Source: Felis catus (lineage: Eukaryota). From it: DNA of 64,000 nt. Positions 6,215 to 32,425 of the stretch are shown in pieces. A program made the position numbers and the translations under genes. The number at the start of each line of letters is the position of its first letter. Within the stretch, counting starts at the first letter, position 1. Below the pieces are notes generated by a model. That model searched no databases, was not told where the DNA came from, and worked only from the letters and a program-made list of their open reading frames with translations. The stretch lies in assembly GCF_018350175.1 (NCBI RefSeq), contig NC_058368.1, positions 33,854,001-33,918,000 of the forward strand. The letters run 5' to 3'.

Positions 6215-7571
6215 CACCTAGGTGATTCTACTTCTACTAAACTGCACTTATATGATATTATTTACTGCTAGTATCTGTGCTTTACTTGCTCCCCCTTCCC
6301 GGAATGCAGAACTTTTCTTTCTCTCTGATTATTTCATAGCAGGGATACTAATAATCCACCTGGGAAACTATTGTCCAAGTAGCAATCCCAGATACTTCCA
6401 TAGTTGAGAGTGGATATTTCATAGTATTCACTACATTTTATTGTAGTTATCTATTAAAATGTCAATTTTGATCTCCAGTTGAGTCATCAGAAACTATCTC
6501 TCATTTATCTTGGTATCACCAAATGTGTAACAAACTGTAGGGACTAAATGTTTATAAAACTTATAATTCACCATAATTAATTACTAATAATGGAGCCAGC
6601 AATTTCAATATTGATTTAGTATTGATTTAATATTGAGACAATTTAAATGCATCAAAGAAGAGATGGAATAGGGAAGTGATAAGCTGACCAATGGGTTTTA
6701 AAGGGATGGGTAACTGGAAAAAAAATAGAATTAAAAGAAATATAAACAGTGCCTTGCTCAGAGAAGTCAACTGGTGAAATTTTGAGGACAAAAAAAAAAT
6801 CACTGGTTGGTTTTATAAACAGTATGATTATATTTTATTTCTATTCATCACATAATTACACCAACCAAAAATAATGAGGATAATCAAATTTCAAGCTTTA
6901 ATACACAGGCCTGAGATCAAGGAGAAGGTATTAACCCCTTATGTAGTTTGCTAAAGAAGCTAGTCAATACTAAAATATAACTATAAAACTAAACAGAGTA
7001 TGAGAAAATATCATTATTGAATATGCTTTTATACTAAACTCACTACAGACTATTCATTGTCAGCTTTTTTTCTATATTAACTCATAAACCTAAACTTTCC
7101 TATAGAGTATATTATAAATGTTTCCCACCTTTAAATTCAAACTTTAGAATGGAGAAACTAATTCAATGGGTATTTCTTTGATAGTACGCACATCTCTTGG
7201 GATAACTTGAGAAAGCAATAGCCTGAATGTTCTCCATTCACAGGAGATATGAATTGGAGTTGCCCTGATCATTCACAATGGGAAAAGATGAAAAAACTGA
7301 GAAATGAATCAAATTTTAAACATGCCTTCAATTTTCAAAAGATACCAAAGCACAGGAAGAATAAGGGATAAGCTAGGGAAAATGAGAAGGTAACTTTTGA
7401 GACTATAAATACATTTTACTTTGTGTTCATGCTTCCTGCCACTATTTTTGTGGTTTGAGATATGGGCAATTAAGTTCAGAGATAATAAAATGAAATATCT
7501 GGAAAGAACTTTAGAAATTCTCATCAAATCCTTCATTTTACTGACGAAGATGATGAGGTTCAAGAAGAACC

Positions 7572-8099
7572 TTTTTTTCTTGGGAGGTTGGGTGATTCAC
7601 CACACTTTTATTACCCATACTCAGTGAGAAAAAAAATAAGCTTGAGATGCAGCTTCTATTTTTTTCTGTTTCTTAGTTTGTGTTTCCTCTATTCTTATTT
7701 TTCTTCTTCACGGAACATTTTTTTTTCCAATAAATAAACTTTTAGAATGTCCTTCTACATTTTTGAAGCAAAATTAGGTCTCTGCTTAGGTTTACTGATG
7801 TTCTTCAACTGGGTTTTGCAATTTTAATTTTTCTTTATTAACAGAACACATAAGTGAGTTTTCTTCCCAACATTTTAGAATCATTTAGTTTCTAGGCAAG
7901 ATGAACAGCATCTACATACCAAGAGCACATATCAAACCCTCTGCCACCTTCTGTAACTTGATCTGTCATAATCCTTACTGCTATAATACTCCCACAGTCC
8001 AAAATGTGTTCCTCAATTGCCGATTCTTTGACTTCATAAAGGAGATTCCCCATAAGTACTGATCTCTTGTCCCTAGATGAGGTCTCGGGACAAGAGATT
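7572..8099 (-). pseudogene. RBM34: 5'-truncated processed pseudogene of RBM34 (RRM2, basic C-terminus, short 3'UTR)
   Basis: ETSSRDKRSVLMGNLLYEVKESAIEEHILDCGSIIAVRI..DAVHLA*KLN..GRKL..SVNKEK..KNISKPKQ..EGHSKSLFIG matches the recalled RBM34 C-terminus. Stop at 7658-7656, AATAAA at 7612-7607, short A-run at 7578-7572; internal stops and frameshifts. Confidence 0.9.
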
Positions 8100-8220: not shown

Positions 8221-8431
8221 ATTTTTTATGACATTTATTGTCAAATTGGTTTCTATACAACACCCAGTGCTCATCCCAACAGGTGCCCTCCTCAATGCCC
8301 ATCACCCACTTTCCCCTCCCTCCCACCCCGTCATCAACCCTGTTTATTCTCAGTTTTTAAGAGTCTCTTATGGTTTGCCTCCTTCCCTCTCTGTAACTTT
8401 TTTTCCCCCCTTCCCCTCCCCCGTGGTCTTC
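8221..8431 (-). mobile_element. Felid L1 (L1_Fc-like) 3' end
   Basis: ATTTATTGTCAAATTGGTTTCTATACAACACCCAGTGCTCATCCCAACAGGTGCCCTCCTCAATGCCCATCACC, antisense of cat L1 3'UTR. Confidence 0.9.
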
Positions 8432-8464
8432 TTATTGTCAGTTGGGAATTTAAAAAATTTGTAT

Positions 8465-8545
8465 CCTTCATAAGTTAGCTTTATGACTTGGTCAAGTCAC
8501 TTTGTCTCTCCAGGTCATCTTGTTCACATCTGCAAAAGGAGGGAA
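8465..8545 (+). mobile_element. MIR fragment
   Basis: TGACTTGGTCAAGTCACTTTGTCTCTC..CACATCTGCAAAAGG core. Confidence 0.6.
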
Positions 8546-10450: not shown

Positions 10451-13133
10451 ACTAATAAATCTCAGTAAGAACACTGTGAATTTACAGCATTTGAGTTATG
10501 AGCTATTCACATCCCCAGGCACAGATCAGTATGACAGAAGCTCCACTCTATGTAGATTCTATCACAAAGGTGAGGCTCCCTTTCCCCACACCTCCCAGTC
10601 TAAGGCTATAGTTTCAATGTAGATGGGGTAGACCAGCAGCAAAAGAGTTGCTACATCTTTTGTTGCTAACAGCAACAAAAAGACCTAAGGGTTTGAGGAA
10701 GGGTATCAATGTCATGAGTTGCTAAAATGCATTGAAGCGTATTTTTCAACAAAAATGTATGATTTGCAAAGAAACAGGTAAATGTGACTCACACATAGAA
10801 AAAAAAAAGGCAGGTAATATCGTTTGCATTTGAGGGAAACAAAAATACTGGTTTAACAGACAAAACTTGCAAAGCAGATTGTATACATATGTTCAAAATA
10901 CAGAGAAAATTATGTTTGAAAATTAAAAGAAGGCATTGTGACAATGTCTCATCAAGAACAATAAAGAGATGGAAATTTTAAAAAGGAATAAAATGGAAAT
11001 TCTGGAATTGAAAAGCACAGACTCTTAAATGAAAAATTTACTAAATATGCTCCACTGAAGAAAAAGGAATTGTGGCAGAAAAAAAAGAATTTGTGAACTT
11101 GATAGATTTACAAAGATTACACATTGAAAAACAAAGAGAAAAGGGAAAGAAGGAAAATAAAAGGGCCTCCAGAAGAAGGTGGAAAACCAGTATTACATCA
11201 ACGTATCTGTAACAAGATCTGTACTTACAACGTATCTGTACTTCTAACAAGAGTGTCAGAAGTACAAGAGAGACAGTCACATAAAAGTATATTTGAAGAA
11301 ATGATAGTTGAATTCCAAATGCGATGAAAAAGTTTAAATTACACATCTCAGAGACTGAACGAACTCCAAGTAGAATAAATTCAAAGAGATGCACACCCAG
11401 ATATATCAGAATAAATATATCAACAAGTAAAAAACGAAGAAAAAATCTTGAAAGCAGCAAGATAAAATAGTTTATCATTACAATGGACTCCATCCAACAA
11501 GATCAACAGCTGATCTCTGATCAGGAAGAGAATCCAGAAGGCAGTGGGTAAAATAATCAATGCCCCCCACACACACCTGGAGAAAAAAAAAAAAAAAAGG
11601 CTGTCAAGAATGTTACGTCCAGGGAAAGTATGTTTCAAAAACGAAGGTGAAGGTGAATAGAAGACAACTGCAGAAGCAAAAGCTGAGATAGTTCATTGCT
11701 AGCTGAGCCTTCTTCCAAGAAATACTAAAGGAAGTTCTTCAGACAGAAAGCACGTAAACTCAGACAGAAATTCAAATGCACATGAAAAAAGAAACACCCC
11801 CCAGTGAAGGTAATTGTGTAATATTATAGAAGACAGTATAAATGCTTATTATTCCACCTCTTTTCTCTTATTTGAAAAGCAATTGTATGTGTATATATAG
11901 ATATACCTATATATACACAGATAGATGTGCCTATATATTACACACAGAACTGTAATTTACATATTATTATCTTGTTGGGCCTATAACATGTAGAAATGTA
12001 ATATATTTAGCACTAACAGCTTAAAGGGGGCGGGTGAAAATAAAGCTGTTTTGGAGTAAGAAAATGACACCATATGGTTACTAAATCCTCAGGAAGAAAT
12101 GAAAAGATAAGAAATGGAAAATAAGTTTAATATAACAAATATTATAAATATATACTTGTTCTCCTTTCTTAACTTCTTTAAAAGACATAAAATGATAAAA
12201 ACCAATACACAGAACAATACATTAATGGGTTTGTAAACTAATTAGATGTACTATGTATAATAATAGCATAAAAAGGGGGAAGATAGAGCTTTGTAGGAGT
12301 AATATTTCTATATTTCTCTAAAATTAAGTGAGTATAAATTTGAAGTAGATTCTGATAAATTGAGATAGGTGTAGAGCAACCATTAAAGACATAACTGAAA
12401 AAAACTACAGTGAAAAACTATTAAAGGAATTAAATATTACATTAGAAAACATTCACTTAATGCAAAAGAAAGCATTAAAAGAGGACTAGAGGAACAAATT
12501 AGATATTAGACAATTTTTTAAGTAAAAGGACAAACGTGAGTCCAAATATATCAATAATAAATTTAAATGTGAATGAGTTAAGCAATGTGATCAATAAACA
12601 GATCATCAGGCTAGATTAAAAACAATACATACTGTCTACAGGAGACACACTTTTGATGTTTTAGATGAAAAGATACAAACAGATTGAAAGGATTAAAAAA
12701 AAAAGATCATGCAAATAGTAGTCATAAGAAAGCTGAAGTACCTATACTAACATTAGATAAAATGAACTCTAAAAATAAAAATGCTCCTACAGATTATGAG
12801 CACCATTTTATAATAATAAAATGTAGACTATCAGGAAAATCATAAACACCTCATAATCATAAACACATATGCACCTCAAAATATATTAAAATAAAAGACA
12901 GAAATAAAAAGGAAAATAGACAATAGAGTTATAGTAGTTGGAGACTTCCATGCCTCACTTTTAATCATGGACAGAACAAGGAGACAGAAGATCAACATGG
13001 AAATAGACCTGACCAGCGCTATAAACCAACAAGACCTAACAGACATCTACTGGACACAGTACTCCAAACACCTAACTGCACACTCATCTCAAAAGCACAT
13101 GGAGCACTGTCTAATAAGATAGAAAATATTCTA

Positions 13134-13346
13134 ATTTCTTTAATGTTTATTTACTATTGAGAGACAGAGAGAGACAGAACATGAGCATGGGAGGTGCAGA
13201 GAGAGGGGGAGACACAGAATCTGAATTAGGCTCCAGACTCCGAGCTGTCAGCACAGAACCCGAAGCAGGGCTCGAACTCACAAACCCTGAGATCATGACC
13301 TGATCCAAAGACAGACACTTAACTCACTGAACCACCCAGGTGCCCC
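13134..13346 (-). mobile_element. CAN-SINE in L1 ORF2
   Basis: TSD AAGATAGA(A/C)AATATTCTA at 13116-13133 and 13347-13364. Confidence 0.95.
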
Positions 13347-14870
13347 AAGATAGACAATATTCTAGGGCATAAATAACCTTAATAAATTTAAAAGGATTTA
13401 AAGAATACAAAGTATGATCCCTAAACATAATGAAATAAAATTAGAAATCAACAGCAGAAAAATATTTAGAAAACTCACAAATATATGGAAATTAAGCAAT
13501 ACAAGAGAAATTATAAAATACTTTAAGATGTATGAAAATTAAAAAATTTTCAAAATTAATAGATACAGCTTATGGATACATAGCAAACTTATGGAATCAG
13601 CTAAAGCCATGCTTAGAGGGAAATTTATAGCTGTATAGGCATTTACAGCTATAAAAGTAGCTAAAAAGTAGAAAGCTAAAAAGTAATAGGCACTTACAGC
13701 TAAAAAGTAGAAAGATGCCCAATCAATAACCTAGCCTTGCACCTTAAGATGCTTGGGGGGGGGGGCGTGGGGGGAAGAGCAATCAAACAAAAAGATGGAA
13801 ATAACAAAGATTATAACTGAAGTGAATAAAATGGAGATTAAAAAATCAATTAAGAAAATAAATGAAACAAAAGCTAATGCTTTGAAATAATTAACAAATT
13901 TGGCACACTTTTCACTATATTAACAAGGAAAAAAGGAGAAGACTTAAAATACTAAAATCAGAAACTAAAGTGGGGACATTAGTACTGATCTTACAGAAAA
14001 AAAATTATAAAGGAATACTATGACAACTGTATGCCAATAAATTAGGTAACTTTGATGAAATGGATAAATTCCTGGAAAGATACAAATAACTGAAACTGAC
14101 TTAATTAGAAATAGACAATTAGGGGAACTTCTTTAACAGGATAAAAGGTATCTACCAAACAAAACAAAACAAAACACAGTTAATATCATGCTGAATGTTA
14201 GTGAAAGAGTGAAAGTTTTCCCTGAAGATATCTATTTGCAGACTTTTTTCTATCTATACACAAAACCTAATGGAATCTACAAACAAACAAACCTGCTGGA
14301 ATAAATCATTTATATACTATGCAGGCTGGAAGACCAATATATAAAAACCAATGATATTTCTATATGCTAAAAATGAATTATCCAAAAGTGAATTGAGAAA
14401 AGAATTCATTTATAACAGCATCAAAGCATAAACTACTTGGGCAACCTACCTGAACAAAAGAAGTGCAAAACATCTGCTGAAAACTATAAAATATTGTTGA
14501 AAGAAATTAATGAAGATCTAAGTAATGGAAAAACATTCAATTTTTCATGGACCAGAAGATTGAACTTTGTTAAATGGCAATATTCTCCATGTTGATATAC
14601 CCATTTAACAAAATCCCTATCAAAATCCAATGACATTTTCCAGAAATTTACAAGCTGATCCTAAAATTAATACAGAATTACAAAGGACTCTGTTTAACAA
14701 ACATAATCTTGAAATATAAATACTGAATTAGAAGACTTAGCACATCTCATTTTTAAAACTCACTACAAAGCTACACTAATCAAGAAAGACTTTTACTTAT
14801 ATAAAAATAAATGATATAAGTGAAATGAAATTATGAATTTAGCAATAAACCATTTATGGTCAATTGATTT

Positions 14871-15391
14871 ATTTTATTTTAATTCCAGTGTAGTTAACAT
14901 ACAGTATTATATTAGCTTCAGGTTTACAATATAGTGATTCAACAATTCCAAATATTATTCAGTGCTCATCAAGATAAGTGTACTCTTAACTCCCTTCACC
15001 TGTTTTACCCATCCCCTGTTCCTTTGTTCATTTGTTTATGCTTCCACATATATGTGAAATCATATGATATTTGTCTTTGAGTATTTTGCTTAACATTATA
15101 CCCTCGAGATCCATCCAAGTCATTGCAAATGGCAGTATTTCATTCTTTTTTTATGCCTGGATATAGATATATCTAGATATCCATATCTCCCACATCTTCT
15201 TTATCCATTCATCTACCAATGGATCCTTGGGCTGCTTCTGTAATTTGGCTATTGTAAATAATGCTGCAATAAACACAGGGGTGCATATATCCTTTCAAAT
15301 TAGTATTTTCATATTCTTTGGGTAAATACCTGGTAATGTGGTTACTGGATCATATGGTAGTGCTATTTTCAACTTTTTGAAGAACCTACAT
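14871..15391 (-). mobile_element. Carnivore L1 (L1_Carn-like) 3' end nested in older L1
   Basis: Antisense L1 3'UTR; perfect 11-bp TSD TCAATTGATTT at 14860-14870 and 15392-15402. Confidence 0.9.
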
Positions 15392-15806
15392 TCAATTGAT
15401 TTTTTATAAGGATGCCAAGAACAGCTTTTTCAACAAATGTTACTGGGAAACAAGATACACACATACAAAAAAAGTGAAACTGGGTCCCTTTCTGATATTA
15501 TACACTAAACACAAAAACGGACCATAGACATAACTGTGAGAACTAAAATAAAAACATAGGAGTAAATCTTTGTAAACCTTGGATCAGATAATGGTTTCTT
15601 AATACAATACCAAAACACAAGCTACAGAAGAAAATAACAGATAAGCTGCATTTCGCTGAAAGAAAGTTTTATGCTATATAACATACCTTTAAGAAAGTGA
15701 AGATACAACCTATGGAATGAGAGAAATATTTGCAAATTTTATATCTGATAAAAGACTTGTATCTAGAACATAACAATCAACTCAATAACCAAAAGATAAA
15801 TAAACT

Positions 15807-16038
15807 GGGGCGCCTGGGTGGCTCAATCAGTTGGGTGTCCGACCTCAGCTCAGGTCATGATCTCACGGTTTGTGGGTTCAAGCCCCGCATCAGGCTCTGT
15901 GCTGACACACATATTTTCTGACAGCTCGGAGCCTGGAGCCTGCTTCGGATTCTGTGTCTCCTTCTCTCTCTGCCCCTCCCCAACTTGTGCTCTGTCTCTC
16001 TATGTCTCTCAAAAAATAAATAAATGTAAAGAAAAAAA
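15807..16038 (+). mobile_element. CAN-SINE with 16-bp internal insertion
   Basis: TSD AAAAGATAAATAAAC; extra ACACATATTTTCTGAC in body. Confidence 0.95.
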
Positions 16039-16196
16039 AAAAGATAAATAAACCAATACAAAATGGGCCAAGGGGATGTGAATAGGCATTTCTCCAAAAC
16101 AGATATGTCAATGGCCAATAAGTACATGAAAAGATGCTCAGCATCATTAGTTATTAGGAAAATGGAAATCAAAGCAATAAAAAAAAATTCCACTTC

Positions 16197-16430
16197 AGGG
16201 CACCTGGGTGGCTCAGTCAGTTGAGCGAATGACTCTTGATATCAGCTAAGGTCATTATCTCACTATCCCTGAGATCAAGACTGGTGTCATCCGGGTCTGC
16301 GATGACAGAATGAAGCCTCCTTGGGATTCTCTCTCTTGTCCTCCCCCGATCTGTGCGCACTCTCTCTCTCTCTCATAATAAATAAATAAACAAACAAACA
16401 AACAAACATTAAAAAACAAAAGAAAAAAAG
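16197..16430 (+). mobile_element. Older CAN-SINE
   Basis: Head with GACTCTTGATATCAGCT variant, (CT)n, A-rich tail. Confidence 0.9.
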
Positions 16431-16692
16431 AAATTCTATTTTATAGCCACTAACGTGGTACAATTGAAAAGACACTAACAAATAATGTCAAGGATGCGGA
16501 GGAATTGGAACTCTTCACACATTGTTGGTGGGATTATAAAATGGTGCAGCTGCTTTTGGAAAGCAGTTTTGCAGTTCCTCATATTGTTAAAAAAATAGAA
16601 TTATCATATCATGTATACACAAGGTATATCTTTAAAAGAAATAAAAACCACATCGGCACAAAAACTTTGTATACAAATGTTGAAAGCAGCAC

Positions 16693-17441
16693 TGTCGTCT
16701 AAGAAAGATACATGGTCTTTGTTCTTGGTTCCTGGCACAAAAATTCCTAAAACCCTTGGAATCTCCTGAGTGATGAAGATGTTAAGAATGTCTTTTGTTC
16801 TAATGAGGTAACTCTTGATGGACCACCAGACAGTTTCAGGATGGGAGCTGGTCACCAGAAAGACGAACCCTTTACTAGAAGCTTGGAACTTTCAGCCCCA
16901 GTCCCCATGTCTGAGGAGAGAAAAGGGACTCGAGATTGAGTCAGTCACCAATGGCCAAAGATTTATTAATCTTGCCTACATAATGAATCCTCCATAAACA
17001 ACTCTAAGCAATGAGGTTTGAGAAGTTTGTGCGTTGGCAAACATCCACATTCAGGGAGAGTGACATACTCCAACTCCATAGGGACAGAAATTCCTGCACT
17101 TGGGACCCCTGTGTACCTCATCCTATTTAACTCTTCGTCTGGCTATTTATCTCTATCTTTTATAACAAACTGGTAGACATAAGTAGGATCCCTTTCTGAG
17201 TTCTGTGAGTTATTCTAGCAAATTGTTGAACCAGACAAGGATGTCAGGGGAACCCTTGATTTACAGCCAGACAGTTCAGGTGGCCAGAGACTTGCAAATG
17301 GCATCAGAAGTGGGGGCAGTCTGGTGGGACTGAGCCCTTTAATTTGTGGGATTGGAAGCTAACTCCAGATAGTGTTAGAATTGAACTTAATTGTCAGACA
17401 CCCAATTGTCCGAGAGTTAAAGCGATGTTGGAAAAATACCA
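16693..17441 (+). mobile_element. MER21-like solo LTR nested in L1 3'UTR
   Basis: TG...CA ends; GGTTCCTGGCACA..CCTAAAACCCTTGGAAT..CAGGATGGGAGCTGGTCACCAGAAAGAC..TTCTGTGAGTTATTCTAGCAAATT. Confidence 0.8.
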
Positions 17442-17442
17442 A

Positions 17443-17492
17443 CTAGTTATAGTTATAGTTATAGTTATAGTTATAGTTATAGTTATATAGTT
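17443..17492. repeat. (TAGTTA)n microsatellite
   Basis: About 8 hexamer units. Confidence 0.95.
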
Positions 17493-17533
17493 AAAAACAA
17501 AGCAAACAAAGAAACCTCTCAGATATCAATTTT

Positions 17534-17743
17534 TTAAATTTTGTTTGGATGTTTATTTATCTTTGAGAAAGACAGCAAGTGTGGGAGGGGCAGAGAGAGA
17601 GGGAGACACAGAATCCAAAGCAGGCTCCAGGCTCCAAGCTGTCAGCACAGAGCCCGACATGAGGCTTGAACTCACGAACCTTGAGATCATGACCTGAGCC
17701 GAAGTTGGCTGTCGCCCAACTGACTGAGCCACTCAGGTGCCCC
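17534..17743 (-). mobile_element. CAN-SINE
   Basis: Antisense SINE; TSD TCAGA(T/C)AT(C/T)AATTTT. Confidence 0.95.
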
Positions 17744-18734
17744 TCAGACATTAATTTTAATAAGCAAATTTTAGACTCAAACATACATCAACTAACAAAT
17801 GGAAAGTAAAATGTGGCCTGTCCAGAATAGAATATTATTTGAAAATGAAAAGAAATGAAGTGCTATTACAAATTATAAGGTGGATGAACCTTGCAAACAT
17901 TTTACTAAGTGAAAAAGCCAGTCATGAAATACCCCCACACTGTTTGATTCTATTTACACGGTATTTCCAGAGTAACTAAATAGAGACACAAAGGAGATTA
18001 GTGGTTGCATGAAACTTTTAGGACAGTGAGGGGAAATGGAAAATTACTGCTAATAAGTATGGCCTTTGGGGCTTTCTTTTTGGATTATGAAATGTTCTAA
18101 AATTGATAATGGTGATGGTTGCAGAACTCCGTGAATGTATTAAAAAAAATCACTGGATGCCCCATGTGATCAGCAGACCAAGGGTGGTTCACCCCACCTG
18201 AAAAGGCTAGCCATTCTTTTGTTTACTTGTTGCAAAGAAGAAAGGGAAGACAAAGTAGGGAGCCTCCCGGCTTTAGTTTTGTTATTTAATTCAGCTTTTA
18301 TCCAAACACTATATTAGTGATTATTAGAAGATTATCTGTCTGGTGATAAAATCTATTTAACTGTTGTTCCTTTAGCTGGTACCTCTTTGTTTCTTTATGC
18401 CTCATATGTTAATGGATGTTAATATTATTATACAGAATGCTGTTTATTCCTATAATTAATCACTTCATCATTAATACTCATGTTTCTAAATTCAAATTTA
18501 GCAAAACTATTTTAAAATCATTTGTACATGTATATTTAAAATATAATATATGTAGATATAGATTAGGCTTATATAGCTCTCTATATATATTTAGATGCAT
18601 ATATAAATAGATAGGTACATATATACATATACACCTAAACATCTTGCACATATAGAGAATTTATTTTATTATACTTACGTTGGAACAGTAACATGACCTA
18701 TAGTCTAACACTTTACAATTACCTTCAAACACAA

Positions 18735-19561: not shown

Positions 19562-20860
19562 TGTGTTAGGTAGTTTGCAAAAGAATGGCAACATTTTTTT
19601 TTCTCTTTTCAGTATCCATGCTCCCCTTGGAATGTGACTTCAAAGCTCTTTCCATCAAGAGATGGAATGTATTTCCCCATCTCTTAAATCTAGACCTTCC
19701 TGTGACTGCTTTGACCAACAGAGTGTGAAAGAAATATTGTACTGGTTCTCAATCTAAGTCTCAAGGAAATGTATATGCTCTGCTTGCTTCTGGAAGCCCG
19801 CGGTTGCTATGTGAACAAGCCTGGGCATGAGGAACACGTGCTATCCCTGATAACCAGCCCACAGAAAGCCAGCCTCTAGACATGTGAGTGAGAACTCCCC
19901 AGGTGAGTCAGCCCCCAGCATAGCGGTCAGGTTATTGCAGACTCATGAGCCAGTCCAGACAAGATCAGATGAACCTGGCTTGAATCTTATAAGGTGAAAC
20001 ACAAATGAAAAGTAAGAAAAGAGTTTAATTCTCCCTGATACAAAAAGAGAAAGAGCTCCTCCTTCCCTTTTTTAATAGTATTACCTTTGAAAACGTATAA
20101 TTGTAAATTCTCTGTTCTTTGAGAGGTAATATAATTTTTTTAAAAAAAGTCTACTGCTAGTTTTACCACTCAAGCATGCTTTTCTTAAGGACCTACAAGC
20201 CAACTCTTTGAAATATAATCATTAAGGAAAACAGTACATCTATCTCCTAGTCTCCAACGAGACACTGGATGGAAAGAGACTAACTAGCTTAACCTCTGCT
20301 CCTGGCTCCAAGTTGCAGAATTTAGCTCCTGTCATCATCAAGATATGAGAAGTTTATTTTTCCCTTTGGATAAAGGCAATTAACTAACACAGATGGCCAC
20401 TCCAATTACCAGGCAAATTTACAACACTCTATGAGTGACACATGGGGCTCCTCTATGAGTCCTCTTTCTTGAGGACTAGTTATAGTTAACCTTGAGAACA
20501 CAAGTGCAATTAAGCGCATCTACCCAGCTGTATAAAAGGGTGAGATTTCTGTTTTTGAAATCTTTTTAGGCAATCGCCTGTGATGCATATCTCAGTCTGG
20601 TTTAATGCTTATTCAATAATAAAACTGTTTTCTTTCTTTCCTGTATTTGTGTAGCGGAATTTCTGGATTGGCAGAAAATCTTCTAATTGTTTCTCCCCAA
20701 TAATTAGCAGAACTACCCCTCTGGCTTTAGACTCATGAACAAAAATAAATGAACAATAATGAACAACAATAATAAATGAACAAGAATAAATGAACGAGTG
20801 ATGGCTGTTTCAACTTTACAAATTCTGGATTTTTTTTCCCCCACAGTAAAAGCTAACAGG
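19562..20860 (+). mobile_element. MLT1G/H-like LTR split by a nested ERV1 LTR
   Basis: TTCCATCAAGAGATGG..TGTGACTGCTTTGACCAACAGAGTG; stops ~19988, resumes ~20703 (TAGCAGAACTACCC). Confidence 0.75.
19989..20702 (+). mobile_element. ERV1 MER4-group solo LTR (MER34/MER89/LTR48-like)
   Basis: TCTTTGAAATATAATCATTAAGGAA..AAGATATGAGAAGTTTATTTTTCC..TATAAAAGGGTGAGATTTCT (TATA) and AATAAA; interrupts MLT1. Confidence 0.7.
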
Positions 20861-20879: not shown

Positions 20880-21240
20880 AAAAAAAATATTATGCAGAAC
20901 TTCAAACATACACAGATATACACAAAAATGTATAATGAACTCTTACACACCAATCACCTAGTTTCAAACATTAACAACCGATGATAACTCCTGTTTAATC
21001 AGTATGTAAAACCACTTCTCTTTCATATAATTTCCAAACAAGCCACCACATCTTATTTCATCCCCTGCTGGACGACATTTGAAACTGGTGAACATCATTA
21101 AAACACATAAGCAACTACTCACGAAAGTTGCAGTCGATAAAAGAAGCCAAAACCCGAAACAAACAAGAACACGCCTGAACAATATCATCTTTACCAACGC
21201 TTTAAACTTCAGCATTCCCTTCAACATTTTTTGACTGCAG
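20880..21240 (-). mobile_element. L1MC4-like 3' fragment (strongly diverged toward the CpG island)
   Basis: TTCAAACATACAC..TATAATGAACTCTTACACACCAATCACCTAGTTTCAA..TTATTTCATCC resembles recalled L1MC4 antisense. Confidence 0.6.
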
Positions 21241-21289
21241 CAAAAAACAAAAACAAAACCATGCCCGAGGTGTTTTGTTGTTGTTGTTG

Positions 21290-21472
21290 CCCCAGTGGGG
21301 TTCTCTTCTTGTTGGAATGTGTTATGTTGGATGCACACCATTATGGACCACAGTCTCTAATGAGCGTAAAAGGGTCAGAAAAGTTGGTTGGTAAAACCTT
21401 GATTTTGTGTGGTCCTTTTTGCTAATTTATCTCAATAAAAGCCACCTGAAACTCAAAAAAAAAAAAAAAAAA
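21290..21472 (+). mobile_element. Poly(A)-tailed segment, probably an old L1M 3' terminus
   Basis: AATTTATCTCAATAAAAGCC (AATAAA at 21434-21439) followed by A18 at 21455-21472, like the L1M end ATTATACCTCAATAAAGCTG. Confidence 0.45.
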
Positions 21473-22570
21473 GAGCCAAGATATGCCACCTCCCCACCCC
21501 CCCATGGCCTGTGGGTCACCTACCTGAAAGACAACAGCACCCGCAACATCTTCATCTACCGTCGACCAGGAGGTGGTGCGCTGGGTCAGCGTTCCCCGCG
21601 GGGCCCGCTTCCACAACCTGCCGGTGTGGGTGCTCTCCAGGAACTACCTTCAGGACAACACGCAGAAAATGCGGCCGCGGCCAACGAAAAGCTTCTGGAA
21701 GCACGGGCTCACCTTGGACGACCTGAGGCTCTAGTACCTCAAACACCCCAGGACACTCTGGCCTGCGGGGAAATCTTCACTGGCAGCAGGGAGCGCGGCT
21801 ACGTCGTGCTGGAGAGGCAGGCATTGTCCACCCAGGGCCACCACTGGCCGCAAGCCACCGTCACGGTCGTGCTGAAGCAGGTTTCTGCGGGCCTGCAAAA
21901 CGTCGCCACGGGCGTGGCTGAAGGCTTTTCGGAAGATCATGCACGGGACCAGGCTAGCCAAGTGGAAGTCCACTGCCGGCATACACCCTAGCAAGAGACG
22001 GTGCTGGAGGCCCGAGGACTTGGGACTCCCTCCCCACGTCGTCGTGTGAGAAGGCGGCGGCTGGAGCTTTGAGCACCTGCGGCCAGAGAGAGCCCACTGC
22101 CCCGCCCCTGCCCTACTCTGAAGGGCAGCCTTGGGCGTGGCCCGTGAGCTTGAGCTTGAGCCGCCAGGACCCGTAGTTCTGGAAGCTCCTTGTGCGCCAG
22201 CTAGGCCTGGCATGACCTCTGACCCTGTCATGCTGCTGTCTGCCTGATATGATACCCCTACTGCGGTGTTCCCATCCCTGCCCCCTGGACCACTCTTCCT
22301 CTGAGACCCCTGCCTGGCTTCCCAGTTGAGGGAGGCCCGAAAACTCACTATCAAGCCTTGCGACCGCCCACTTGAACATGATCTAGCCTGTAGCTGGGAA
22401 GGCTGGGCTGTGGGGACAGCTGGCTGGCCTGGCCAAGGGGGTTCAGGGACCTGCCTACATTCCCCCACTCCTCCCCCCTTCCCCAGCCTATTCCATGCCT
22501 CTTTTTCCTCTTCCTTTTCCCTCCCTTTCTCCTCCTCAACAAGTATTTCCTGAGGGGGGTAAAAAAAAAA
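21473..22570 (+). pseudogene. ADAP1: 5'-truncated processed pseudogene of ADAP1 (centaurin-alpha1): end of PH1, PH2, 3'UTR
   Basis: Frameshift-corrected AKICH..PHGLWVTYLKDNSTRNIFIY..ARFH..LSRNYL..DD.RL*Y.K.P..GEIFTGSRERGY.VL..STQGHHWP..FL.AC..AF..VEVHCRHTP* vs recalled ADAP1 AKIGHPHGLQVTYLKDNSTRNIFIY..STQGHHWP..VEAHFKHKP*. Orthologous stop at 21989-21991, premature TAG at 21732-21734, several frameshifts, ~11-codon deletion, no introns. 3' boundary (A10 at 22561-22570) is tentative. Confidence 0.92.
21541..22200. promoter_or_regulatory. CpG island coinciding with the ADAP1 retrocopy
   Basis: About 47 CpG in 660 bp by manual count, GC >60%; GC box CCCCGCCCC at 22100-22108; NotI site at 21671-21678; rest of window is CpG-poor. 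Confidence 0.75.
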
Positions 22571-22611
22571 CCCTCTTCCTCCCTCCCTTCCTTCCTTCCT
22601 CCCTCCATCTC

Positions 22612-22703
<92 letters not shown>

Positions 22704-22705
22704 TC
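22612..22705. repeat. (CTTT)n microsatellite within a polypyrimidine tract
   Basis: About 23 perfect CTTT units. Confidence 0.98.
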
Positions 22706-22850
22706 GTGATCTTCAAAATATACAGCCACTTGGATGTAATTCAAAACGGAATTATCCTCAAAATAAAAATGCAAAAAATAAACAATGCCTTTACAACATT
22801 GATCACAGTGAGATCCGACTTTAAATATCCATATCCACTTTGGTTACCTT

Positions 22851-23052
22851 GTATTTATTTATTTATTGAGAGAGAGAGACAGACTGCGAGCAGGGGAGGG
22901 GCAGAGAGAGAGGGAGACACAGAATCTGAAGCAGGCTCCAGGCTCCCAGCTGACAGCAGAGAGCCTGACTTCGGCGCTTGAACTTGGGAATGGGGAGATC
23001 ATGACCTAGGCTGAAGTTGGTCGCTTAACTGACTGAGCCACCCAGGTGCCCC
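22851..23052 (-). mobile_element. CAN-SINE
   Basis: TSD CCACTT(TG/CA)GTTACCTT at 22835-22850 and 23053-23068. Confidence 0.95.
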
Positions 23053-24450
23053 CCACTTCAGTTACCTTTTAATTTTACTTTTATAATTATTTTTAAAGCA
23101 AGGAAAATAATTGGAAGTGGTTAATGCAATATTACGTTTATTAGGTTAAAAAAGAACTGTCTCATTAGATTTAGAAAATACAATGTCTTCCTGCTTTAGC
23201 TTTTTGTTTTATGCTATATAGTAAGGTAATAATATACCTGCCTAATAATTCTCCCATAGAGTTAGAGAAGATTAAAAATTAAACAAAAAACAAGCAAATG
23301 AATGAAATAGGTATGACACTTTAATTTATTTTTTCAGTTTACTTTATAATTTTTATTATATGCAAATTGATGTTATTGATGTGTTTTATGAATTCATAGA
23401 GTATAGACTAATGAAATTAAAAAGTAATAAATATTTTTTGGCTGTGCCATGTGCCACCAATATATGTATGTTTGGGGGACAGTAAATAGGAGAATTTTGT
23501 GTGGGCTACACTGAAGGGCGTCTTCAGGACACAAGCACTCATCCTCATAGATCCCATAAGGGAAAATGAGGTTGGAAAAAAGTCTCTATTAGAAAAAATT
23601 ATCAGTTTTTTAACAAACGGGACAAAGCAAGGGTCTCAAGAGGCAAATGAATCAGCCTTCAGCATATATCTTAGATTTGAGAGGTTCTTTGACTTTTGAA
23701 TTTCAGTAACATATTTTCACCCCAAGCTTCTCCTATCTACTTAATCAAAAATAAGAAAAAGATATAATCTTCTGCTTTCTCAAGTGTCCATGTGTATCTT
23801 AACCTCCTGTGCACTGCTCTGTTGTTCATGCTTCTTCCTCGATAAAATGATGGTAGAGAAATGTATAAATTCTTCCCTATCTCTTCCCCACTCCTGCCAG
23901 AGAAACAGGGAATTTGAACTTTGCCAACAACAAATGCACGGAAACACAATACATCTTACAGGGGACAGGGGGCACACAATACATCTTAGTAGTTTTAATG
24001 ATACCTAAGAATGACACTGACTAATTTAATAGCTTATTTCATATTTGTAACAGTTACTCTCTATTTTTTAAAGAATTTGAGAAAATTGGATTAGAAGTAT
24101 TTGCTTCTGTCTTATCTGAGAGAATAATAAACTGGGTTACCACAGGGTTTACTCATTCCAGGAGGTGAGATGGATTTAATTCTTTACTCATAAATGAAAG
24201 GGAAAATTGGCATTATATAGAAATATACAATTTTTAAAAATGTGTTACAAATACAGTATTCTAGATTTTTATTACTTTACCAATCATTTAGTCCCTCTCT
24301 ATAACATCTCAACCCCTAGCCATGTGATGATCTCCAGCACCTTCTATGAGAGGAATCTTTCCCACCCCCTGGATGTTTTATTTTGGCGTATGAATTTATT
24401 TGGCCAATTAAAGGTGGATGAAATGAAATTATCCTTCAGAAGTTACCAGT

Positions 24451-27351: not shown

Positions 27352-27572
27352 TTTTTTAATTTTTATTTTCAACGTTTGTTTATTTTTGGGACAGAGAGAG
27401 ACAGAGCATGAACGGGGGAGGGGCAGAGAGAGAGGGAGACACAGAATCGGAAACAGGCTCCAGGCTCTGAGCCATCAGCCCAGAGCCTGACGCGGGGCTC
27501 GAACTCCCGGACCGCGAGATCGTGACCTGGCCGAAGTCGGACGCTTAACCGACTGCGCCACCCCGGCGCCCC
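27352..27572 (-). mobile_element. Young SINEC_Fc
   Basis: Near-consensus with CpGs intact; perfect 16-bp TSD TAATGCTTCAATTTTT. Confidence 0.97.
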
Positions 27573-28779
27573 TAATGCTTCAATTTTTACATTCATCTAA
27601 TTTCAATGCTCCTGATCCTAAATAAATAAATAATTTAAGGTGTCTGTGGGAGGTACTATTATTTTCTTTCAGATTAGTTTAAATTAGACAAAAAGTGCTC
27701 TTTCGTAGTCCTTATCTTTGTACAGTGAGGAGATGATTATGTACATAAAGATGTTTTCGAATAACTTGTTTATTTTCACTGATCTCTCAAATAATTAATG
27801 GTTATCACCAAGATCCCACTTTGGCAACAGCAAAAATATTTCACAACTATTAGAAAGTAGAGGACTGTATTTTTCAAATGTAAGTAAAACACCAAAGTAT
27901 GATGGATTATTAGGTTTACAGAAGCAACATGAACTAAATTTAGCTGCATGACAATTATTCATCTTTGTTCCACCTTCCCATACAAACAGGGAACAATTTT
28001 AAGGACATTAAAAAGCAGTAGCAAATTTCCAATATCACTTTTCTATGCTAATGGTTAAAAAAAAATCTAATTAATTCAGTCTTGCTGCAGAACCATCACA
28101 GAGAGATTCTAAACTAGGTGTTAATAAACAAATGCCTAGCCTTGTAAAAAGTGTCCGTGTGATCTATATATACACACATAGCAGGCGCAGGAAAACTGTG
28201 AAGAAGGCCACAAGCTTGGGCCTTCAGTCACCCTGTGAATCACTCCTGCTTCATTCTCCGGATAATAATGAGACCAAAATGAATGAGTGGTAGCAGAACT
28301 CGCGGAAGTTTGTGAAAGAAAGAGACAAAACTTCATAGCCTAACTATATCAGAAACAGTATGACACGATAAATTTAACATCGTACCTGGAGCAAATAGAA
28401 AATACCAAAATTATAGGTTTCTAGGGGCCGGGGATGAGAAAATAGACAATATAATCAGAATATGTTCTACATCAAAGGTAGCCAGTTTGAAACTTTTCAA
28501 GAGTTTAATGTTTGGGGGAGAGGGAGACGATGTTCAAATAAATTTGCACAATATCAAATCTGTTAAAGACTCAATTTATCTTGGGGATAAAATAATTATT
28601 TTAACCACTGGATTAAAATATATATACATAAATCTTACCTAGAAATAAAATTGTGTTACCTACATTTCCAATTCACAATGTATTGAAAATGGCATTAACC
28701 TGATATCTTCTCTATGTTGAAAATATTGAGCTGTCCATGATCAGGGAGCATGAAACGATGAGAATCAGGACACCATGTG

Positions 28780-29641
28780 AAAAACAGAAATTCCGGGGGA
28801 AAAGTGTTTGAGAACAGGGACGCTCCATGGACCCAAGGAGATAATGAGTGGTTTCTGAAACTAAATTCTCAGCCCAAAGAATTCAAGACTTATGTCAGGG
28901 ACCTATTTATAATGGCTGACAGTGACATAACTCTGAGTTTGATGGGCAGAGATTTTGGTCTTCACAGGGTGCTTAATTAATATGTACATCCCTTTGTTCC
29001 TACATATGGACATAAATCACATGGCCAAATACCTAAAAGGTATACTTTTAGGTAGCCTGAACAAAACAGAGGACTCAGAAGACTCATGCTTTAACACCTG
29101 CCCCATTACGCGTGAGACTATGGTTGTGAGGAGATCACTATTCTCTCAACGTTTTAGATTCATACCTATAAAGGCAGATGGCATTGTTCTTCAGTAATAG
29201 ACACTTGTTCCAAACAGACCATTTCGGATCCATTGTAGCATTTCTGTATTCAGTTCCTTCAGCAGTGTTGCAATTTTGGTTTTGCTTCCCATAGCCTACA
29301 TCACCCCTGGAAGATACAGTCCATCACCCCACAAGCACAATCCTAGTAGTCCTGCGTTAAGAGCCGATGAGTATAGTAAAATGAAAACCCAACTTACTGG
29401 CCTTTGGTTGAGACAGCCTCCAAGGCCTAATTTACATGCTAAAGTTTCTCTGGCATATCAGGGTTAAGCTGTGCTCCGGAAGATCTTTCCTGAAATTGTA
29501 CCCATGTTTTCTTCCTTGGCTTCTTCTTTACCTCTGTCCTGTTTCTGCCACTCTCACTGGATTTGGCTGGGATCACTTAATAAATCACTTGCACAGAAAT
29601 TCTTGCCTCAGGATCTGCTTTTGGGGTGTCCAATCTAAGAC
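28780..29641 (+). mobile_element. ERVL integrase remnant plus LTR16-like LTR
   Basis: TGTTCTTCAGTAATAGACACTTGTTCC (cf. FVLTGIDTYSG); LTR16-type end AATAAATCACTTGCACAGAAATTCTTGCCTCAGGATCTGCTTTTGGGG..CTAAGACA. Confidence 0.65.
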
Positions 29642-29904: not shown

Positions 29905-30990
29905 TTATTTAGTAATATGCATTTTAGGATCCTCCATGTATTTTCATGGATTGACAGCTCATTTCTGTATTAAAACTGAGTAATAGTCCATTGTATGGAT
30001 GTACCAGCTTGCTTATTATTTACCTACTAAAGGACATCTTGGCTGCTTCCTTCCACCTTTCAGCAATAAATAGAACTGCTATAAATATCTCTGTGTGTTT
30101 TTAAATTTTTTTTCAACGTTTATTTATTTTGGGGACAGAGAGAGACAGAGCATGAACGGGGGAGGGGCAGAGAGAGAGGGAGACACAGGCTCAGAAACAG
30201 GCTCCAGGCTCTGAGCCATCAGCCCAGAGCCTGATGCGGGGCTCGAACTCAGGGACCGCGAGATCGTGACCTGGCTGAAGTCGGACGCTTAACCGACTGC
30301 GCCACCCAGGTGCCCCATCTCTGTGTGTTTTTAAATACATGCAAGTGTTCAACTCCTTTGTTTAAATACCATTGAGTGTGAGTGTAAGACTGAATTACAA
30401 GAAACCAACGAATTGTCTTCCAAAGTGGCTGTACTAGTTTGCTTTCCCACCTGTCATGAGTAAAAGTTCCTGGTGCTCCATATTGTCACCAGCATTTGAT
30501 GCTGTCCGTGTTCCAGATTTTGGTCATTCTAATAGGTGTTTAGTGGTATCTCTTTGTTGTTTTCATTTACATTTTTCTGGTGACATATGATGTGGGGCAT
30601 TTTTCATATGCTTTTATACCATTTGTATATCTTCTTTGGTGATGTTTCTGTTAAAGGTCTTTGACCAATTTTTTTAACAGCGTTGTTTTCTTCTTGTTAG
30701 TTTTAAGAGGTCTTTGCATATTTTGGATAGCAGTCCTTTACCAGATGTGCCTTTGCAAATAATTTTTCCAGGTCTGTGTCTTGTCTTCTCATTCTCCTGA
30801 CATTGTGTTTCATAGAGCAGAAATTTTCATCTTGATGATGTCCAGCTTATCAACTATTTCTTTTATGGATCATGCTTATGGTGTTATATCTATAAAGTCT
30901 TCTCAATGTCTAAGGTCATCTAGAATTTCTCTCAGGTTGTCTTCTAGGAGTTTTATAGTTTTGCAGCTATAATCCATTTTGACTTAACTT
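29905..30990 (-). mobile_element. L1MC1-like fragment
   Basis: ATGCATTTTAGGATCCTCCATGTATTTTCATGGATTGACAGCTC..CCTACTAAAGGACATCTTGG, continuing into the antisense ORF2 end. Confidence 0.85.
30107..30316 (-). mobile_element. Young SINEC_Fc
   Basis: Near-consensus; perfect 20-bp TSD ATCTCTGTGTGTTTTTAAAT. Confidence 0.97.
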
Positions 30991-31566: not shown

Positions 31567-32425
31567 ACAATGTATACGGAAATACTGCTATGTAGTTAAA
31601 GCATGGGAACATGAAGGAACATGGCAAAACTTTAGAAAGGCAGATTATGAATGGATATGTTTGATTTACTAGGGAGTCGTTTTATCATTTTGATAATTTG
31701 GATCATAACATATTATGGAATCAATTTTAATTCCAATAATTATGGAATCAAGTTTATATTTTAGAAAAAAAATAGAAAAATAATTCTAAAAATATTTTAT
31801 AGAATAATTAGAATGTAAAGATGCAGGCAGCAGGAAACCTTAGTAAGCTTCCTTAATAAGCCATTTAGTAGTGCAGACAAAAGATAGTGAGCATGTAAAC
31901 TATCACAGTGGCTAGTACATATAGGTACCTCGTAAGTACTTGCTGACTGACTGCTCCACTGATACTAAACAAGGGGAACGATTAAAGCTATTTTGTGGCC
32001 CTTAAGAAAATGAGAGTATCTGTTTGTAGAAAATAAGGAAAAGGACAGATTTAAAGAAGGTTCCTACATTACTGACATTGATAATTCGATAATGCTACCG
32101 CTTAGAAAAAAAAAAAAGGTGAAAGGTTTTGGGAAGAAAAGCGATGTAGTCTAATGTGGATGGTTTGCCGCAAAAAGGCATGTTCTCCAAAGCGAAGCCA
32201 ATGTATAATTGCAGATCTACCTATCACTGAAAGGACAAAGTCAAAGCTGGAGAAAAGCAGCTGATGGATGACGGGAAGCTTCATAGATGTGGATGAAGGA
32301 ATCTAGTGAATATTCTAGAGCAAGAATAGTGGAGAACTGAGGAGAGAACCATGACATAAAGTTTGTAGAGATGGGAGAATGAGTTATCTCAGAGATTGGA
32401 GAAGACTTAGAATAGAGGTCTGTCA

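Follow-up and report, generated by a model that had tools for sequence, protein, structure and literature searches.

Several CpG islands are already known to have been born from pseudogenes and retrocopies, and the ADAP1 retrocopy of the cat is a real further example. In the human cases described by Rademacher et al. 2014 (PMC4122923), a retrotransposed piece of mRNA formed a new CpG island within an intron. Among 104 lineage-specific human islands in that study about 15% were unmethylated, and five intermediate islands were almost unmethylated in sperm. The human retrocopy islands are of primate age and intronic, and three of four derive from the 5' island of the parent, whereas the cat copy is older, has no host gene that was seen, comes from the 3' coding half of its parent and has had most of its CpGs rebuilt. 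A second counterpart is PPP1R26P1 in intron 2 of human RB1, likewise a dead retrocopy truncated at its 5' end, in which the CpG-rich part derived from coding sequence remained an island at the new site (CpG85; Kanber et al. 2013, PMC3839921). The human island lies in an intron, is imprinted and drives a transcript, none of which is apparent at the cat copy.

Two further systems bear on how such an island could persist. About 1 kb of G+C- and CpG-rich DNA is unmethylated by default without RNA polymerase II, and promoter-less CpG-island-like DNA in a gene desert was unmethylated in ES cells (Wachter et al. 2014, PMC4204011), so that the simplest mechanism needs no function. The cat copy resembles a natural version of these synthetic islands, although the constructs had 65% GC and 1 CpG per 10 bp and were studied in mouse ES cells, while in the copy the values are 62% and 1 per 14 bp, and it is the germ line to which the conclusions refer. 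In many mammals, loci that are hypomethylated in sperm bear the mark of GC-biased gene conversion, with some felids showing a deficit (Joseph et al. 2024, PMC11161765). Like these PRDM9-independent hotspots, the cat copy has a raised non-CpG equilibrium GC in a putatively hypomethylated island, but the hotspots are conserved, promoter-like and measured in bulk, whereas here a single insertion-born locus is read from about 50 substitutions. No paper on this ADAP1 copy surfaced among the top-ranked matches of a literature search, and the main text of bioRxiv 10.64898/2026.06.26.734816 makes no mention of CpG or methylation.

The window is the whole stretch of 64,000 nucleotides of Felis catus DNA that was analysed, and its positions ~21476-22570 are a 5'-truncated processed ADAP1 copy that spans the last six parental exons and is 23% diverged (Table 1). 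When window 21473-22570 was searched against the genome (2.43 Gb) at the DNA level, the matches were the copy itself, one gene on contig C41 hit in two stretches, and a short sequence on C42. The C41 gene is ADAP1, as its translation matches carnivore ADAP1 proteins, and the window frame 21528-21731 matches solved human ADAP1 structures. The six parental exons are bounded by GT-AG and were spliced by script for comparison. The copy aligns through four of the five exon junctions, the fifth falling inside a 33-nt deletion; its 5' end lies inside the first of the six exons, and its 3' end is that of the parent followed by a short A tail. An earlier, sequence-only reading had described an intronless ADAP1 copy with a premature stop, several frameshifts and roughly 50% amino-acid identity, and all of this holds: the parent is multi-exon, the stop is a TAG, the shifts are -5, -1, net -2 and -10, and the residue is kept in 89 of 157 ungapped codons (57%), or 49% of the 183 parental codons. 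Features beyond that account are the 5' truncation, a DDX6 fragment directly upstream, the pairwise compensation of the frameshifts and the absence of the stop in one relative. In the coding part, 112 of 490 aligned bases differ from the parent (K2P 0.275), and divergence is evenly spread along the copy at 20-34% per segment. The 0-fold sites differ at 76 of 316 and the 4-fold sites at 15 of 77; coding constraint has been lost, with the stop and the frameshifts.

Table 1. Features of the ADAP1 retrocopy and its immediate surroundings (positions within the window)
Feature	Position	Strand	Remarks
LTR-like interspersed repeat	19986..20704	+	Old; oriented toward the copy; TATAAAA at 20531, AATAAA at 20618
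Possible left target-site duplication of the DDX6+ADAP1 composite	21249..21262	+	Weak; 12/14 match to 22561-22574, mostly A
DDX6 mRNA 3'-end retro-fragment	21269..21472	+	5'-truncated; AATAAA and A17 tail; directly upstream of the ADAP1 copy
Stop-free frame of 198 codons	21395..21991	+	No ATG; reaches the native ADAP1 stop via compensating frameshifts
CpG island	21408..22198		791 bp, GC 0.61, 47 CpG, O/E 0.65
ADAP1 coding-derived part	21476..21991	+	End of PH1 through PH2 to the native stop
Antisense open frame of 370 codons	21731..22843	-	Partly microsatellite
Premature TAG in the ADAP1 frame	21732..21734	+	Absent in relative P0026
ADAP1 3'-UTR-derived part	21992..22560	+	Proximal ~200 bp CpG-rich (14 CpG), distal part CpG-poor (4)
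GC box	22100..22108	-	CCCCGCCCC (GGGGCGGGG on the minus strand)
Remnant poly(A) tail	22561..22570	+	Overlaps the right copy of a possible A-rich target-site duplication (22561-22574)

Elsewhere in the genome, a second ADAP1 retrocopy is found on the minus strand at C42:37.84 Mb (L004:1354-1600), made up of 3' UTR only, with an A tail and the same 3' end. This UTR-only copy has many ancestral UTR states in common with the window copy against the parent. A protein search of the genome gave only ADAP1, an ADAP2-like gene and the window copy among its best-scoring candidates. A near-identical CpG-rich copy elsewhere, which the sequence-only reading had named as the mark of a recent duplication, was looked for genome-wide by DNA and protein search and was not found. 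Recent duplication from a GC-rich locus was rejected, as the DNA search gave, besides the copy, only the two parental stretches and one 3'-UTR-only retrocopy; with no second copy of CpG-rich sequence in either search, no CpG-rich intermediate was found.

The copy lies directly behind another mRNA remnant. The gene upstream of this fragment's source locus ends in a DEAD-box helicase C-terminus, and from the C-terminal peptide we take it to be DDX6; two more DDX6 3'-end fragments are found elsewhere in the genome (L012, L013). An A-rich repeat brackets the DDX6 and ADAP1 pieces together, so that the pair may have arisen in one template-switch event or by insertion into the A tail. Chimeras from L1 template switching, and sequential insertions, likewise consist of two RNA-derived pieces in tandem, possibly with one target-site duplication (Doucet et al. 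2015, PMC4476161). The chimeras reported there are mostly U6/U6atac joined to L1 or mRNA, whereas both pieces here are mRNA 3' ends, and the cat duplication is too A-rich to separate one from two events. The upstream LTR-like repeat, which ends about 770 bp before the copy, has at least 40 related copies at 66-78% identity, and its label rests on element anatomy rather than on a repeat library. On the other side, a pyrimidine tract and a long (CTTT)n microsatellite (22571-22706) directly follow the A tail. A SINE in reverse orientation occupies 22835-23070, with a recognisable target-site duplication (22835, 23053) and decayed CpGs. Downstream on the same strand, at a distance of about 93 kb, begins the open reading frame of PCDH17, identified by a match of 986 bits to a solved structure; a formin gene, presumably DIAPH3 from its synteny, lies 2 Mb beyond PCDH17.

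Base composition sets this locus apart from its surroundings. The sequence-only reading had counted ~47 CpGs in 660 bp and called this the window's only GC-rich stretch, and both statements are borne out: the richest 660 bp (start 21542) hold 47 CpGs, the maximum, and 21408-22198 is the only region that passes 500-bp island criteria in 84 kb (the window and 10 kb on each side). Judged by a GC of at least 0.5-0.55, an O/E of at least 0.6-0.65 and a length of 200-500 bp or more, the stretch is a CpG island by sequence definition, passing the stricter values only just. Its O/E of 0.65 compares with 0.25 for the whole window. The whole 1098-bp interval has an O/E of only 0.50, since CpGs are few in the distal UTR beyond ~22200, and for the most part few there in the parent as well. 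CpGs are also raised in the AT-rich left flank (21001..21300), which has 7 CpGs in 300 bp at an O/E of about 0.65, a number reached in 1 of 222 other non-SINE bins. This suggests that the unmethylated zone extends past the copy. On the right, the adjacent SINE at 22854, 300 bp from the copy, shows normal decay, with 3 CpGs in its head versus 11-15 in young copies. From the excess on the left and the normally decayed SINE on the right, the affected zone would measure about 21000-22200. The non-SINE bin at 28101-28400 also holds 7 CpGs; searches with 27600-29300 and with 23055-24300 matched only themselves in the genome. The other small CpG peaks in the window are only young CpG-rich SINEs at 27361-27575 and 30106-30316.

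The sequence-only reading had proposed aligning the copy to ADAP1 and sorting the substitutions, and this revealed that the retrocopy has a deficit of CpG decay, new CpGs and an excess of A/T to G/C (W>S) changes. Among 32 parental CpGs aligned ungapped, 13 are intact and 10 carry a transition (7 of them plain TG/CA), and 20 of the 33 CpGs in the coding part of the copy are non-parental, that is, new. A control is provided by a 5'-truncated processed RBM34 pseudogene 14 kb away (about 7560-8090, minus strand), which differs from its parent exons on C22 at 81 of 433 aligned bases (identity about 81%) and shows ordinary AT-ward decay. There, 9 of 11 aligned parental CpGs carry a transition, against 10 of 32 in the ADAP1 copy (p=0.005), and 2 CpGs are present in 7580-8060 versus 12 in the parent exons, so that this pseudogene is indeed nearly CpG-free, as had been stated. 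By the substitution counts, CpG deamination at the ADAP1 copy has been reduced over evolutionary time, as in the orphan-island class; its CpG sites still show a transition rate about twice that of other C/G sites.

The polarity of changes is known at 0-fold sites, because the parent protein is conserved. At these sites W>S changes number 32/161 and non-CpG S>W changes 16/117, giving an equilibrium GC (GC*) of 0.59. The RBM34 control, which is unpolarised, gives 17/261 and 35/150, respectively, and a GC* of 0.22 (p=0.001 against the ADAP1 copy on event counts), so that non-CpG sites of the copy have a W>S excess relative to the surroundings. The value of 0.59 differs from AT-biased nulls of 0.35 (p=0.0006), 0.38 (p=0.003) and 0.45 (p=0.04), but the two rates do not depart significantly from equality (p=0.20), and the excess reaches significance only when the null is AT-biased. 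Parental changes inflate the all-site GC* of 0.655-0.72, and the use of synonymous or all sites for polarity was rejected since the parent's own changes raise W>S there. In the parent 3' UTR (L002/L005-L006, C41:870.2-870.5 kb) a three-way comparison counts W>S 16/66 versus S>W 9/107 (GC* 0.74), a drift toward G/C as expected near a chromosome end. The distal CpG-poor UTR of the copy has a GC* of 0.44, with no GC bias. The adjoining DDX6 piece has 0.49 versus 0.35-0.36 in two other DDX6 copies, a difference that is not significant, and the substitution rate of 0.29 in the ADAP1 copy versus 0.19 in the DDX6 piece (p=0.11) does not establish acceleration. GC-changing transversions are W>S in 18/196 and S>W in 11/294 and are thus also raised toward G/C; the process is therefore not editing of one base type. 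ADAR- or APOBEC-like editing was rejected on these grounds and on the symmetry of A>G (16) and T>C (14). SINE copies were discarded as a control for local GC bias, as subfamily structure confounds the 75 copies (pooled GC* 0.51).

Simulations with rates set by us, starting from the parent as a stand-in for the ancestor and with 200 runs each, give an idea of which processes are needed. A methylated, AT-biased copy (10-fold CpG rate, GC* 0.38) retains 5-6 CpGs with a maximum of 13, and a methylated, GC-biased copy (10-fold, GC* 0.65) 15-16 with a maximum of 26. An unmethylated copy at GC* 0.38 keeps 29 CpGs, but gains 18 new ones in 1% of runs and reaches a GC of only 0.53. A CpG factor of 2-3 with a GC* of 0.65 reproduces the divergence, the GC (0.62) and the CpG counts. 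The sequence-only reading had proposed that the copy is germline-unmethylated or under GC-biased conversion; the substitution spectrum supports both, and the simulation fits only with both acting. It could be argued that the copy is methylated like its surroundings and that its CpGs were refilled by very strong GC-biased conversion alone, or that it came recently from a GC-rich intermediate. The share of new CpGs and the twofold transition rate at CpG sites would fit refilling, but we consider this very unlikely: at GC* 0.65, the highest modelled, the methylated model never gave 33 CpGs in 400 runs, the neighbouring SINE and RBM34 copy decay normally, recent changes run AT-ward (see below) and yet CpG transitions are scarce, and neither search yielded an intermediate.

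The copy is probably a self-maintained, germline-hypomethylated orphan CpG island that was formerly under GC-biased gene conversion, with methylation state, recombination and timing read from the pattern of substitutions. In this account the 3' half of the ADAP1 mRNA, rich in GC and CpG, would have been copied by the L1 machinery into a 5'-truncated cDNA and inserted in an AT-rich setting 93 kb upstream of PCDH17, either at the same time as the DDX6 3'-end fragment or immediately behind it. About 700 bp at 62% GC, with 7 CpGs per 100 bp, would have satisfied the sequence rules of a CpG island, and for that reason the stretch may have stayed largely unmethylated in the germ line, no function being needed. 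With little methylation, CpGs would have decayed at only about 2-3 times the background rate. The island, being open, may then have served as a PRDM9-independent recombination site, where GC-biased gene conversion would fix A/T>G/C changes and create new CpGs in a self-reinforcing loop.

The age of the insertion can be approached through relatives of the copy. In an alignment of 20 proteins, the copy carries residues common to nearly all Laurasiatherian ADAP1 as opposed to those of primate, rodent and sloth (R in GSRE, R and an L-derived codon in RFLL, A in RAW and R in AFRK), and at one position it keeps the ancestral V, which is replaced by I in the cat parent. A profile-free protein search of 1.84 billion representatives returned 22 matches. 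P0038, a 908-bp contig, is intronless across an ADAP1 junction, and over 51 codons it has 11 derived residues in common with the window, with 9 found in the window only, 8 in P0038 only and 4 different in all. Independent copies would have 2.3 common derived residues on average, with a maximum of 9 in 20,000 trials, and P0038 is therefore an orthologue or sister copy from a distant relative, with about half of the divergence predating the split. At least the -1 and net -2 frameshifts are absent from P0038, which has frame changes of its own; a search with P0038 found no further homologue. The insertion would thus be younger than the Laurasiatherian residues and older than the divergence from the P0038 host. 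Attempts to find outgroup ADAP1 DNA in metagenome contigs gave 278 pattern matches, none of them confirmed. Closer relatives were found because the antisense open frame served as a query: P0026 and two cluster members differ from the window by 7 (besides the start codon), 4 and 13 residues, and P0028 is also frameshifted. From distance alone, the three are presumably other cat-family animals. P0026 does not have the premature TAG, which would make that stop recent.

These relatives allow the changes to be placed on branches, with the branching order assumed from distances and the counts covering residue-changing differences only. Over the first and second positions of the 51-codon segment, the stem has 7 W>S, 3 S>W and 2 CpG transitions, the P0038 branch 4, 1 and 2, and the window branch 1, 3 and 1, respectively. 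The close relatives yield 24 inferred single-base differences; 7 of these were ambiguous and were omitted, and the 17 that could be given a direction include 3 W>S and 9 S>W (GC* 0.35), which suggests that no conversion bias acts at present. W>S:S>W is 11:4 early and 4:8 recently (p=0.057). Recent CpG transitions number 1-2 against 5-7 other C>T/G>A changes among the three relatives, a scarcity with P=0.006-0.04 under a 10-fold CpG rate and P=0.08-0.20, hence not excluded, under a 5-fold rate. Small as the counts are, they suggest that the GC bias was early and has faded in felids while CpG protection continues, and a bias that faded in the recent cat-family lineage agrees with the deficit reported for PRDM9-independent hotspots in some felids (PMC11161765).

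An open reading frame across the dead gene brings up a different reason for CpG retention. The 198-codon frame runs stop-free to the native stop, an event with P=0.02-0.03 under the fitted neutral model, and non-CpG S>W changes are 16/117 at 0-fold versus 6/113 at synonymous sites (p=0.04), a contrast at G/C sites that the neutral model under-predicts (P=0.01-0.03 in simulations). Both oddities were spotted after viewing the data, and they keep alive a minor rival in which a PH-domain fragment, spliced to an upstream exon, was translated early under positive or relaxed selection, codon constraint keeping the CpGs until the gene later died. The residue changes common with P0038, which are stem-born, the absence of at least the -1 and net -2 shifts from P0038 and the recent TAG would fit such a phase. 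We regard it as unlikely, as the frame has no in-frame ATG and no sign of purifying selection (dN/dS 0.88, with no third-position excess among 14, 12 and 14 differences), is almost open in the parent too when shifted, and is changed independently in P0038. No annotated protein from the copy was found among the protein-search matches, and CpG retention in the proximal UTR (14 CpG) and the left flank would be left unexplained. The 370-codon antisense frame is probably a by-product of base composition. A coding function for it was rejected, with a dN/dS of about 0.9-0.95 and a frameshift in P0028, and among Markov shuffles of its UTR part 4% leave one given frame open and 11% at least one of the six. 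The frame with the lowest dN/dS of the six (0.53) is not an open one.

The sequence-only reading had also suggested an exapted promoter, enhancer or differentially methylated region (DMR), a role for which the sequence appears to offer no support. An island taken up for distal regulation, as a promoter or an enhancer with PCDH17 as the most plausible target, would be unmethylated because it is bound and used. PCDH17 lies on the same strand, the CpG excess reaches into the left flank, and RB1 transcript 2B, which derives from PPP1R26P1, is a precedent (PMC3839921). The GC box noted in the sequence-only reading is present at 22100, but says little in 65% GC DNA and has a similar run at the same spot in the parent. 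Such a role is unlikely: there is no sign of sequence constraint, as divergence is even, 4-13 residues differ even between close relatives and turnover is at or above the neutral rate, and no TATA or CCAAT motif occurs within 21000-22800. An unmethylated state requires no transcription (PMC4204011), and although 20 of 24 listed sequencing runs contain the stretch, with 12 as possible origins of this DNA, the RNA ones are mostly metatranscriptomes stored as contigs and carry no weight for expression.

Alternatively, the copy may be a maternally methylated germline DMR like that of RB1/PPP1R26P1, unmethylated in sperm and methylated in the oocyte by transcription that starts in the LTR-like repeat upstream. 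A CpG decay that is slow yet not absent, by a factor of 2-3, would fit methylation in one germ line, an argument also made for PPP1R26P1 (PMC3839921), and LTR-initiated oocyte transcription sets maternal DMRs (PMC8168557), here with a sense-oriented repeat close by. Against this, the repeat is about 30% diverged from its sister copies, and its own AATAAA and the DDX6 poly(A) signal stand between its TATA and the island. No host exon was noticed in the window ORF list, unlike the situation of PPP1R26P1; the nearest identified gene is PCDH17, and the stretch between, partly covered, leaves room for non-coding hosts. The motif TGCCGC, which we take to be the ZFP57 site, is absent from the copy and has its single match in the window at 32166. 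ZFP57 motifs of this form are a feature of most imprinting control regions. Taken together, we hold a DMR to be highly improbable. A longer chain can be imagined in which a new germline-unmethylated island became a recombination hotspot, was switched off as such in felids and was then recruited, in carnivores only, as a distal promoter or maternal DMR for PCDH17, perhaps following a brief phase as a fast-evolving PH-domain retrogene, but this scenario is a long shot. If the link to PCDH17 were true, a lineage-specific regulator would have been added to a neural cadherin gene.

Read as a hypomethylated orphan island, the ADAP1 copy is a natural and datable counterpart, tens of millions of years long, of the experiment with a promoter-less island in a gene desert. 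Its ancestral sequence is known from the conserved parent, so that substitutions can be read on each branch. Across carnivores the locus could serve as a direct test of three points: whether the sequence by itself suffices to hold an island free of germline methylation, whether PRDM9-independent recombination is drawn to a new island, and whether PRDM9-less canids differ from felids in this attraction. It also teaches caution, as CpG retention in a pseudogene is by itself no sign of function.

Several minor observations concern the wider region. The promoter island of PCDH17 itself measures at least 6 kb (L051, C1:33.966-33.972 Mb), and the first cadherin repeat of the gene has a long glycine run. 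Within the window, a young 3' end resembling that of L1, which we assume it to be, is found at about 8322-8532 on the minus strand, with thousands of candidates in the genome and best copies 92-96% identical. A long, A-rich, degraded element, labelled L1-like by eye, extends over about 11000-18100 and is broken by several SINEs, also labelled by eye, and a second repeat, again labelled by eye, lies inside it at about 16690-17390.
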